From the UHGV virus genome UHGV-0166849: a stretch of 11,802 nt of DNA. One strand, given 5' to 3'. The translations under genes and the position numbers were made by a program. Below the pieces are notes generated by a model, which was given only the letters and a program-made list of their open reading frames with translations, was not told where the DNA came from and did no database searches. Each line of letters opens with the position of its first letter. The stretch's first letter is position 1. This stretch comes from a virus. This document shows positions 2,996-5,426 of the stretch, one piece after another.

Positions 2996-3051
2996 TTAAT
3001 TTGCTCCAGATACAAGGAATCGCCGCAGCGTGGCTACGGTGAATTTTGGGC

Positions 3052-3079
3052 ATAAAAAAACCCAGCCGAAGCTGGGTCG
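3052..3079 (-). terminator. Rho-independent terminator between ant and the tailspike gene (t_ant-like)
   Basis: On the + strand: A7 run (3054-3060), then a 7-bp stem ACCCAGC/GCTGGGT with loop CGAA (3060-3077). Read on the minus strand this is a hairpin followed by a U7 run, 19 nt downstream of the ant stop. Confidence 0.6.
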
Positions 3080-3095
3080 TTGCGTTGTTTATCTG

Positions 3096-4019
3096 TCAGT
3101 AGTTATGTACTGAAGGAGGTAATTCTTTGTTCTTAAGTCTTATCCATGCTGAAAGGTTTGTTGGTCCGTCTGGCTCATTAATATCAACATCTCGTGTATG
3201 GTTGATTAAAACATCTCTCGCCATTCCGATAACATACGAGAACTCATAACCGCAGTCATGACATCTGCCGGAATAGTTCGATTGAATTTGTTTCAGCGCC
3301 GGATACAGTTCGCGGAATAATGCCTGTGAGCGGTTGGCATAATCCCATAGCCATACAAGGCTGTTTGCTTCTTTTGCAGAAAGCTCGTTGGTTTTCTTCT
3401 CTTGTTTGCCAATGAACTCACCTTCAAGTGGAACTCGAGCTGCAAGTGATAGTGCTTCGGTAAACTGCTCCTCACTGATTTCTTTGTACGAACATCCAAA
3501 ATGGGATTTCAGTGACGACCACATGGTGATCATCGCCTTAGCCCGTTTTTCTTTTGGCAGAGACTGACCGCGACTCATGACGAGTTGTTTAATGGCTTCC
3601 TGCTGTTCAGTGGTGATTTTACCCGGCAACGCCTTTTTAGCTTTGCGTGGGTTAACTACATAGCCTTTAGTCCAGTACTCGTAGAGCACATCGTCACACT
3701 CTTCCTGATACTGGATTACCTTGTCGCGGATTTCAGGGCGGACTTTGTTTGGCTGAATGCTTGAAAGCCAAGCCGCAAACTTACGAAAGGCAAGGCATAT
3801 CATTAACTGTTTACCGCCAGCAGAAGGTATTTCGATTTCCGAAATACCTTTGACAAATCTCTGTTTTAATTTAACAAATTGAGCAGCCCAAACCATACCC
3901 ATGCCTTCTACAACGGGTTTCATAGGAACGTAAGGTTCATTGTTAATGCTGACCAAAAAGAGATTTGTTCCGTGGAATGGAACGTTGATTGTATGTTCTG
4001 CAATTGCTACACTCGTCAT
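3096..4019 (-). CDS. ant: Antirepressor Ant (307 aa), AntA/Bro-N-like N-terminal domain
   Basis: ORF in track. Sits downstream of arc and upstream of the tailspike, as in P22 immI. N-terminal region (..VPFHGTNLFLV...PMKPVVEGMGMVWAAQ..KL) looks like phage antirepressor N-domains. SD AGGA ~8 nt upstream of the ATG at 4019. Confidence 0.75.
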   Translation of the reverse strand: MTSVAIAEHTINVPFHGTNLFLVSINNEPYVPMKPVVEGMGMVWAAQFVKLKQRFVKGISEIEIPSAGGKQLMICLAFRKFAAWLSSIQPNKVRPEIRDKVIQYQEECDDVLYEYWTKGYVVNPRKAKKALPGKITTEQQEAIKQLVMSRGQSLPKEKRAKAMITMWSSLKSHFGCSYKEISEEQFTEALSLAARVPLEGEFIGKQEKKTNELSAKEANSLVWLWDYANRSQALFRELYPALKQIQSNYSGRCHDCGYEFSYVIGMARDVLINHTRDVDINEPDGPTNLSAWIRLKNKELPPSVHNY

Positions 4020-4090
4020 GTCGTTAATTCCTATGCGTGGTTTTACGATACCGAAGCCCTGACTGTTCCCGCAGTTGGGGCTTCACTGTT
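4020..4090 (+). ncRNA. Candidate sar-like antisense RNA (~70 nt) complementary to the ant RBS and start region
   Basis: Plus-strand promoter-like hexamers inside the 5' end of ant: TTGATT (3985-3990), 17-bp spacer, TACACT (4008-4013), placing a start near 4020. Downstream is an imperfect hairpin GAAGCCC...GGGCTTC (about 4051-4081) followed by TTTTT (4085-4089). This matches the known P22 arrangement of sar RNA opposite the ant RBS. Prediction from sequence only. Confidence 0.3.
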
Positions 4091-4304
4091 TTTGTAAGTC
4101 ACTGTAGCTATAAAGCCACTGACCACTCATTTTTGATTTGATTGACTCTACTGAATCACGGCAAGGAATGATTCCACCTGACATCATTCTGATCTCCGTA
4201 AATTCACCACTCCTTATCGATTCAATGCCATCAATGTTAACTAAAGATTTACCTCTACCAAGTGCATTCTCATAGCCAATCTCATCAACCTCAATAAACT
4301 TCAT
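4083..4304 (-). CDS. Hypothetical protein (73 aa) located between arc and ant
   Basis: ORF in track. Its ATG overlaps the arc stop codon (ATGA at 4301-4304, minus strand), which suggests translational coupling. SD-like GAGGGGA upstream. No recognisable motif. As I recall P22 immI, there is no gene between arc and ant. Confidence 0.45.
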   Translation of the reverse strand: MKFIEVDEIGYENALGRGKSLVNIDGIESIRSGEFTEIRMMSGGIIPCRDSVESIKSKMSGQWLYSYSDLQKQ

Positions 4305-4459
4305 ACCGTTATCCCCTCTCTCTTCAGGCTGTCCAACACTCGCTTGTAAATCTCAGAGTTAACAGATCGCCCGTTCTCTTCAGCTACCTTGCGCACCAAA
4401 TCCAATACTTCTTTAGGCCACCGCAAATTGAACTGCGGCATTTTTCTTGCACCTTGCAT
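4301..4459 (-). CDS. arc: Arc transcriptional repressor (52 aa, ribbon-helix-helix)
   Basis: Not in the ORF track (below its size cutoff). Manual translation of the minus strand gives MQGARKMPQFNLRWPKEVLDLVRKVAEENGRSVNSEIYKRVLDSLKREGITV, near-identical in its first 40 residues to P22 Arc as I recall it (MKGMSKMPQFNLRWPREVLDLVRKVAEENGRSVNSEIYQRV...). SD AGGGGA upstream of the ATG at 4459. Confidence 0.85.
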   Translation of the reverse strand: MQGARKMPQFNLRWPKEVLDLVRKVAEENGRSVNSEIYKRVLDSLKREGITV

Positions 4460-4481
4460 GTCATCCCCTTTGTGGTATTAC

Positions 4482-4508
4482 CGTACTACTATTGAAAGCG
4501 TACTACTA
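4482..4508. repeat. Two copies of a 10-bp direct repeat CGTACTACTA (4482-4491 and 4499-4508) flanking TTGAAAG; candidate operator for Arc and/or Mnt
   Basis: Read directly from the sequence. The repeats overlap the predicted P_ant -10 and transcription start region and flank the P_mnt -35. The TAGTAG core on the opposite strand is reminiscent of the P22 arc operator half-sites. Confidence 0.4.
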
Positions 4509-4520
4509 CCGTCCTAGCAT
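4492..4520 (+). promoter_or_regulatory. Candidate P_mnt promoter, overlapping back-to-back with P_ant
   Basis: On the plus strand: -35 TTGAAA (4492-4497), 17-bp spacer, -10 TAGCAT (4515-4520). Followed by SD AAGGAG (4533-4538) and the GTG start of mnt at 4545. Confidence 0.4.
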
Positions 4521-4525
4521 GTCAA
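4497..4525 (-). promoter_or_regulatory. Candidate P_ant promoter (drives arc, orf73, ant)
   Basis: On the minus strand: perfect -35 TTGACA (4525-4520), 17-bp spacer, weak -10 TACGCT (4502-4497). Lies in the divergent arc/mnt intergenic region, as in P22. Confidence 0.45.
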
Positions 4526-4544
4526 CAAATAAAAGGAGAATGAC

Positions 4545-4787
4545 GTGGCTAGAAATGATCCGCAATTCAACGTAAGAATGCCAGATGAGATAAAACAGCA
4601 ACTTACGCATATTGCTGCAACAAATCGTCGCTCTATCAATGCTGAAATTATTGCCGCTATCCAATTGTGGATAAAGATACATAAAGAGCAGGTAATACCT
4701 TCAAGTAGTCAGCAACTGACCAAGTCAGAGAAAGAGGCTCTTGATGTGACTATTGATGTTCTACAACGTGTAAGGGATGGGAAATGA
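4545..4787 (+). CDS. mnt: Mnt repressor (80 aa, ribbon-helix-helix, Arc/Mnt family)
   Basis: ORF in track with GTG start. N-terminus MARNDPQFNVRMP...RRSINAEI matches P22 Mnt as I recall it (MARDDPHFNFRMP...GRSMNSEL). Divergent from arc, with a strong SD AAGGAG 6 nt upstream. Confidence 0.85.
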   Translation: MARNDPQFNVRMPDEIKQQLTHIAATNRRSINAEIIAAIQLWIKIHKEQVIPSSSQQLTKSEKEALDVTIDVLQRVRDGK

Positions 4788-5056
4788 AACCAACGAACAA
4801 AGAAATTTTCGAGCAAATAAAAGTACTTCCTTTCACTATTGAGCTTGCAAAGAGATATGAAGCTTATTATCCGTTTACCGAAGAGTCGATACGGATAGAG
4901 ACATATGATGAGTTTGGTCAGTGCTCTATCTGGCTTGGCTTTGAAGACCAATTTGCTATACGTGATGCTTTTGGAAATTGGAGAATGGCTACAGCTGAAG
5001 AATGTATTGATCTCAGAGGTGGCAACCTTCCAGGTTCAATGACATTAGTTAATTAA
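4784..5056 (+). CDS. Hypothetical acidic protein (90 aa), translationally coupled to mnt
   Basis: ORF in track. Its ATG overlaps the mnt stop (ATGA at 4784-4787). Net acidic (15 D+E versus 9 K+R). No recognisable motif. Confidence 0.55.
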   Translation: MKPTNKEIFEQIKVLPFTIELAKRYEAYYPFTEESIRIETYDEFGQCSIWLGFEDQFAIRDAFGNWRMATAEECIDLRGGNLPGSMTLVN

Positions 5057-5080
5057 CGGCGTACATGGCAGGTATGTAAA

Positions 5081-5266
5081 ATGAATAATAAACCAATGTC
5101 TAACGAAGAGTTGCAGCGCGAGTTAAAGAAACTTCATAAACTGGTATCACTTATCTACTCCAAGTTGCCACCAGATGCTCGACAAGCTGTTTTTGATGAA
5201 CTAACAAGAAGCGGAGATAGGGATGATCTGGATACTGCTTCTCGTATCAATAGCTACCGTTTTTAA
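5081..5266 (+). CDS. Hypothetical protein (61 aa)
   Basis: ORF in track. Weak SD (AGGT) 7 nt upstream. Its last 20 nt overlap a convergent minus-strand small ORF. Coding status uncertain. Confidence 0.35.
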   Translation: MNNKPMSNEELQRELKKLHKLVSLIYSKLPPDARQAVFDELTRSGDRDDLDTASRINSYRF

Positions 5267-5426
5267 TAGCCTCCAGAGTCGAATCGTAACGACTGCGCAT
5301 TGATTTTGCTGATTTCTCAAGCTCTTCTGCTTGATGCTTCAGTGATTCAAGATGAAGCTCTCCAAGATGGCACTTCATCACTTTGATGGTGCGTTCAAGG
5401 TTTTCCACACGTTCTTCTATGGTCAT
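5247..5426 (-). CDS. Hypothetical protein (59 aa), helical and charged; not in the ORF track
   Basis: Manual translation gives MTIEERVENLERTIKVMKCHLGELHLESLKHQAEELEKSAKSMRSRYDSTLEAIKNGSY. Strong SD AAGGA 6 nt upstream of the ATG at 5426. No obvious promoter between it and the upstream terminator, so expression is uncertain. Confidence 0.35.
   Translation of the reverse strand: MTIEERVENLERTIKVMKCHLGELHLESLKHQAEELEKSAKSMRSRYDSTLEAIKNGSY

Follow-up and report, generated by a model that had tools for sequence, protein, structure and literature searches.

A predicted sar antisense RNA gene opposite the antirepressor start of a P22-like prophage

Introduction

Does the strand facing the translation start of a phage antirepressor gene encode a small RNA that controls that gene? 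The question is raised by the virus genome UHGV-0166849 (11,802 nt; this whole stretch of DNA is the window below), for which a first-pass annotation had put forward an antisense RNA resembling sar, about 70 nt long and facing the start of the antirepressor gene, ant. In phage P22, sar base-pairs with the ribosome-binding site of ant mRNA so that translation cannot initiate (PMC12197685, PMC7968456), keeping the antirepressor low despite the other repressors (PMC12197685, PMC7968456, PMC11016777), and small-RNA sequencing of P22 infection has detected sar reads (PMC13397905). Here, we find from the sequence of the window and its relatives that positions 3985-4093 on the plus strand are very probably the sar gene carried by a P22-like prophage (Lederbergvirus-type, CUS-3-like).

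Results

A full-length sar family match lies opposite the ant leader

To identify the element, we scanned the whole window with Rfam. A single family matched, the sar RNA family RF00262, at 4021-4087 (+), scoring 76.6 bits where the gathering cutoff is 43 (E 5.8e-15) and over its full length (model positions 1-68 of 68); no other family did. With R1, a covariance model that we built from eight sequences, 4020-4093 scores 90.3 bits. This match, the P22-type gene neighbors and an anatomy colinear with that of P22 and epsilon34 bear out the proposed sar-like RNA of about 70 nt. The features of the element and its predicted target are as follows.

3985-3990, plus strand: -35 hexamer of the putative sar promoter (Psar), TTGATT, inside ant codons 10-12; read from the sequence, at the same position as the annotated P22 Psar
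4005-4013, plus strand: extended -10 of Psar, TGc-TACACT, inside ant codons 3-5
4020-4093, plus strand: predicted sar RNA, 70-74 nt; 5' end placed by P22 homology, 3' end within T4089-T4093
4020-4049, plus strand: stem-loop I, from the predicted fold; outer helix GUCGU/ACGAU from +1, anti-Shine-Dalgarno UUCCU (4028-4032) in its upper part
4053-4084, plus strand: terminator hairpin, 14 bp, 4-nt loop UCCC, three G.U pairs
4089-4093, plus strand: T5 tract of the terminator, after ACTG; the other strand encodes the last codons of orf73 (K, Q)
3096-4019, minus strand: ant, antirepressor gene, 307 aa; Pfam P22_AR_N (8.6e-40) and P22_AR_C (1.2e-28); predicted sar target

The element is antisense to the ant leader, in the stretch bounded by the ant start codon and the end of the preceding gene. 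The ant ATG occupies 4019-4017 (-), and its Shine-Dalgarno sequence, AGGAA (4032-4028), lies 9 nt before it. We place the start of the RNA at G4020, one base past the start codon, because P22 sar is annotated to begin right after the complement of the ant ATG. From there the sar sequence is the perfect complement of the ant mRNA leader over positions -1 to about -70, counted from the AUG, a stretch that takes in the Shine-Dalgarno sequence. The RNA had been expected to cover both the ribosome-binding site and the start codon of ant; the first part stands, AGGAA being covered, while P22 homology puts the 5' end next to the AUG, and the RNA probably halts one base short of the start codon.

The RNA at 4020-4093 folds in silico into two hairpins at -29.8 kcal/mol (z = -5.3; 0/200 shuffles were as stable), and its minimum-free-energy and centroid folds are identical: the 5' hairpin carries the anti-Shine-Dalgarno sequence, and the 3' one is a G+C-rich terminator hairpin followed by U. 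A hairpin roughly 30 nt downstream, a T5 run after it and an overlap with the stop codon of a 73-aa ORF had all been anticipated; the hairpin begins 33 nt after the predicted +1, the run sits at 4089-4093, and the TGA (4085-4083) has two bases within the 3' stem arm. The description of the hairpin as imperfect applies solely to its three G.U pairs, since it contains no mismatches. A terminator scan lists this site, and the 3000-5300 region holds 7 terminator-like sites against 1.8 expected. A second terminator-like hairpin with a T-run lies at 4421-4438 (+), inside the arc codons for PQFNLRW; it would stop sar read-through, but it may simply reflect conserved coding sequence. Two plus-strand ORFs (3879-4097 and 3940-4062), both overlapping ant, were treated as spurious.

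The first ant codons contain a putative extended -10 promoter

Just upstream of the predicted RNA, the plus-strand promoter-like element that had been placed within the 5' end of ant is present as TTGATT-17-TACACT, with a 17-nt spacer (3991-4007), the -10 hexamer at 4008-4013 and a TG at 4005-4006 that makes it an extended -10. The -10 ends 6 nt before G4020, consistent with a sigma-70 promoter of the RNA's own within ant and a start adjoining the ATG. Each hexamer matches the consensus at 4/6 positions, and the total of 8/12 is also that of the experimentally defined P22 Psar (GTGTTA-17-TATACT, annotated in NC_002371); the -35 is better than that of P22 and the -10 one base worse (TACACT vs TATACT). 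The P22 record gives Psar as 29 nt ending 6 nt before the sar RNA. A generic promoter scan does not list Psar because an 8/12 match falls below its threshold of 9/12, and we rejected this omission as evidence of absence, given the equal score of the annotated P22 promoter.

Comparison across relatives shows which promoter positions are retained. Across nine phages, neither TTGCTA nor the T that closes the -10 hexamer varies, and TAnnnT is found at -12 to -7 in 29 of 44 distinct cassettes, including all of those above the Rfam threshold; in CUS-3 and TL-2011b, the -35 is TTGATA. The TGnTAnnnT pattern is kept ahead of antirepressors with unrelated N-terminal domains (P22_AR_N, Bro-N and ORF6N), whose first five codons are alike (M-x-S/I-I/V-A), which fits with those codons carrying a putative Psar.

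We considered whether the locus might be a sar homolog by descent that has fallen silent, its promoter no longer firing and its sequence kept merely as ant leader and recombination joint. The departure of the -10 from the commonest form, TATACT, and the absence of Psar from the generic scan would agree with this, as would phage Emek, in which the -10 position reads TAAGCT and the record flags ant as possibly defective, showing that decay occurs in the family. However, TACACT retains the critical T-12, A-11 and T-7 and the upstream TG, and the overall consensus match is no lower than that of P22. The 109-nt Psar-sar segment, TACACT included, recurs at 100% identity in two complete E. coli genomes and at 99% or more in 87, and unrelated cassettes (L090 and L124) also have TACACT. 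We therefore regard a silent relic as improbable and favor a functional sar gene.

An 8-pair inverted repeat, TGTTCCGTGGAATGGAACG, lies inside ant at 3966-3984 (+), immediately before the Psar -35. Stx phage YYZ-2008 retains it in its copy but, because it is broken in CUS-3, it probably reflects chance or coding constraint.

Both hairpins are conserved through compensatory changes

We collected relatives by scanning viral contigs for the outer arms of the hairpin and by BLAST against phage records, which yielded 46 distinct 5' domains and 36 distinct hairpins. The sar proposal had hinged on the hairpin and T-run being shared with related phages, and all of the related phages examined keep both the hairpin and a T-rich tail, in which TT is invariant in alignment A1. 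When diverse sar sequences were aligned with MAFFT (A2 and A4), stem I came out one column out of register between the P22 type and the window type; pairs in these alignments were not counted, and we relied instead on folding each sequence separately and on covariance-model alignment.

Aligned to R1, 60 matches (54 distinct) keep both helices with compensatory changes. Standard pairs fill 93.8% of cells in the 54 distinct relatives vs 85.1% in column shuffles, a percentage inflated by the fitting of the alignment to the model structure, and 88 cells are changed on both sides vs 21 in column shuffles, counts that do not represent independent events, many of the relatives being closely related. 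The covariation score reaches 0.303 vs 0.144 when shuffled, with 0/500 shuffles reaching the observed value, and it falls to 0.008-0.079 when the partner is slid by 1-3 columns. Changes on both sides occur in 10 of 19 pairs overall and in 4 of the 5 pairs of the stem-loop I outer helix. For the terminator hairpin, 97.6% of cells are paired over the 54 distinct relatives, and six inner pairs covary.

Folding of individual sequences gave a concordant picture of the 5' domain. In minimum-energy folds, 37 of the 46 distinct 5' domains combine a helix of at least 4 pairs from exactly nt 1 with an anti-Shine-Dalgarno tetramer, and a helix starting at nt 1 appears in 8.9% of shuffles. The outer-helix sequences themselves differ: GUCGU/ACGAU in the window, GUUGGU/ACUGAC in P22, and GUCAAUA/UGUUGAU and GUCGA/UUGAC elsewhere.

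Three observations indicate that this structure is selected on the sar strand. The G.U pairs of the hairpin are conserved (UG in 52/54, GU or GC in 49/54 and UG in 42/54), the sar strand folds at -29.8 kcal/mol vs -20.6 kcal/mol for the ant-mRNA strand, and the T-tract and promoter exist on the plus strand only. That the complementary strand also makes two hairpins, in what is the intercistronic leader of ant, would accord with a structure acting in the mRNA as a processing site, a stabilizer or an element coupling orf73/arc to ant, with the antisense RNA irrelevant. We consider this highly improbable: read on the minus strand, each conserved G.U pair turns into a C.A mismatch, together costing about 9 kcal/mol; the T-tract and TGnTAnnnT promoter make sense solely in the plus orientation; and P22 has been shown to make the antisense RNA (PMC12197685, PMC13397905). 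Moreover, one role need not preclude the other, since the sar mechanism includes hairpins in the target, and the weaker complementary hairpins of the ant target belong to this same system. A bidirectional terminator acting on Pant transcripts was rejected, since the minus-strand hairpin has three mismatches and no U-tract after it.

The neighborhood is a P22-type immI region with an additional gene

Having assigned the element to sar, we annotated the surrounding genes, which correspond to the P22 immI set of ant, arc and a Mnt-like gene.

4301-4459, minus strand: arc repressor gene, 52 aa; Pfam Arc (1.8e-26); first gene of the Pant operon
4083-4304, minus strand: orf73, small gene between arc and ant; phrog_11805 (4.2e-53), a family of unknown function
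4545-4787, plus strand: mnt-like repressor gene, 80 aa, GTG start; phrog_2685 (3.1e-32) and Arc-like families; position matches Emek mnt
4492-4520, plus strand: Pmnt-like promoter, TTGAAA-17-TAGCAT, predicted by promoter scan
4525-4497, minus strand: Pant-like promoter, TTGACA-17-TACGCT, predicted from the sequence

As read from these features, mnt and arc are divergent, their putative promoters overlap with a 5-nt offset equal to that of the annotated P22 pair, and arc lies upstream of ant in what would be one operon, the arrangement of a P22-type immI region. Beyond ant, there is an intrinsic terminator at 3078-3059 (-). An 981-aa ORF (50-2995) occupies the tailspike position, and its length, the only property compared, equals that of the annotated endosialidase tailspike of CUS-3. 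A direct repeat, GTAGTAGTACG, at 4510-4500 and 4490-4480 (minus-strand reading) spans the -10 and start region of Pant; it may be an operator, one that we take to be unlike the P22 arc operator.

The departure from the P22-type region is orf73, which separates arc from ant. At its start it overlaps the arc stop codon (ATGA), and at its other end the last codons and the stop lie over the 3' end of sar. Records of phage Emek, 611R6 and E. coli prophages list it as a hypothetical gene in the same arrangement. A Pfam search with orf73 gave no match, and the 7 homologs that we found are all near-identical and confined to E. coli and Salmonella. Its AlphaFold model is confident (pLDDT 85.6), with five strands and two helices, and a comparison of the model with the PDB returned no match with E below 0.2. 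Because sar overlaps the last codons of orf73, sar may additionally affect this gene in this phage. In one homolog (P0001), orf73 has no stop codon and reads through the sar hairpin.

sar is unannotated in E. coli chromosomes and may be exchanged between phages

The sar copy in the window is an ordinary, already-known RNA gene that goes unannotated elsewhere. RefSeq E. coli chromosomes with the identical segment (for example NZ_CP091026, 3448297-3448405) are annotated under it with protein-coding features only and no RNA feature; genome annotators thus overlook a known regulator that is picked up immediately by an Rfam scan.

The exact promoter and 5' domain of the window are also found joined to five different downstream sequences and upstream genes, namely the orf73, CUS-3, P22-arc, L011/L066 and phiv205 types (loci L004, L009, L011, L038, L071, L093 and L099). 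The terminator hairpin (4053-4084) behaves as the mosaic joint, and in the GenBank record of CUS-3 the "bsq2 boundary sequence" begins inside sar.

Stx phage YYZ-2008 contains a sar-like cassette (L130, 1215-1318) that is unannotated in its record and that we read by eye and by promoter and terminator scan. Its ant is 92% identical to that of the window up to about window position 4025, and it keeps Psar (TTGATT-17-TGcTAAACT), followed by a different 5' domain and a hairpin, GAAGCCUC...GAGGCUUC, with compensatory changes and then T5. In Emek (L001, 3950-4060), whose altered -10 is noted above, sar passes Rfam at 61.7 bits and ant has a different N-terminus.

Ten further sar-like cassettes (L032, L034, L059, L076, L085, L021, L068, L056, L036 and L095) fall below the Rfam gathering score and reach 29-52 bits with R1. 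They have a promoter in the first codons, an anti-Shine-Dalgarno sequence and a GAAGCCC/GGGGCUUC hairpin, and most fold a helix at or near +1. We searched the opposite-strand ORFs of eight such cassettes against Pfam, finding that six are P22_AR_N, Bro-N or ORF6N antirepressors and that those of L056 and L036 have no match; by eye, L059 looks like P22_AR_N and L095 Bro-N-like. The closest phage record to L032 is a Pseudomonas phage with an Arc-antirepressor pair, and for one sub-threshold cassette group the sole BLAST match among phage records is a Pseudomonas phage. One viral contig, L068, has two sar-like matches about 870 nt apart on the minus strand (2573-2649 and 1629-1703; 51.7 and 35.8 bits).

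Taken jointly, these observations allow a broader reading that we offer as a tentative possibility, less likely to be right than wrong: the sar cassette might be a modular, exchangeable regulator extending far beyond the Rfam family, with the near-invariant hairpin as the recombination joint between ant-sar and arc-mnt modules, the 5' types, of which there are ten or more by sequence, as possible specificity classes, and sar perhaps acting on orf73 too. If this were true, 5' types would let co-resident prophages control their own antirepressors independently, paralleling the c4 heteroimmunity of P1 and P7. The wider survey suggests that temperate phages generally, and in modular fashion, control antirepressor translation by antisense RNA, and a systematic study would be worthwhile, though beyond the present finding.

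Discussion

We infer transcription, pairing and translational repression in the window by homology with P22. The extended -10 promoter within the first ant codons would fire convergently to the arc-orf73-ant operon and yield an untranslated RNA of about 70 nt, ended at its own intrinsic terminator. Pairing of this RNA with ant mRNA would sequester the ribosome-binding site and so block Ant synthesis post-transcriptionally, making sar a third control layer on the antirepressor beside the Arc and Mnt repressors. With sar assigned, the immI region of the window appears complete, and its antirepressor would be under the classic three-layer control by Mnt, Arc and sar.

The sar RNA of P22 was reportedly described by Liao et al. 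1987, Wu et al. 1987 and Schaefer & McClure 1997. The window resembles it in having a promoter in the first ant codons, a start adjoining the ATG, a length of about 70 nt, a stem-loop I with the anti-Shine-Dalgarno sequence and the same mnt, arc and ant gene set. The predicted P22 fold has the same two-hairpin architecture (-29.5 kcal/mol), and the terminator hairpin differs at 1 of 32 bases, in the loop. The sar of epsilon34 is annotated as in P22, and the layout of both loci (promoter, misc_RNA, terminator, ant and arc) runs colinear with that of the window. By contrast, the 5' domain, the half that recognizes the target, is only about 60% identical to that of P22 (21 identical columns in a 35-column alignment); it is of a type common to CUS-3 and TL-2011b, GUCGUUAAUUCCUAUGCGUGGUUUUACGAU, where P22 has GUUGGUUUUUCUCCAAGGAUUUACUGAC. 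The U-tract is U5 in the window vs U3 in P22. The 3' end also overlaps a different gene: in the P22 record the sar terminator ends two bases into arc, whereas in the window it overlaps orf73 because this 73-codon gene sits between arc and ant. None of these changes (5' domain, orf73 or U-tract) alters the mechanism, although, with a 5' domain that differs, P22 pairing kinetics need not transfer.

Two other phage RNAs offer looser parallels. The c4 antisense RNA of P1 and P7 (immI of P1) is likewise small and prevents antirepressor synthesis by pairing with the ant operon mRNA around its ribosome-binding site (PMC12197685), but it is processed from the transcript of its target and acts on short complementary boxes, whereas sar comes from the opposite strand, and the two have no sequence or structural homology. 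The OOP RNA of lambdoid phages, which tunes the lysis-lysogeny decision (PMC12197685), is non-homologous to sar and shares its general design: both are short, cis-encoded antisense RNAs transcribed convergently from a promoter of their own and ended by an intrinsic terminator. OOP lies across the 3' end of cII and works through mRNA cleavage, whereas the region covered by sar is the 5' leader of its target, with the ribosome-binding site.
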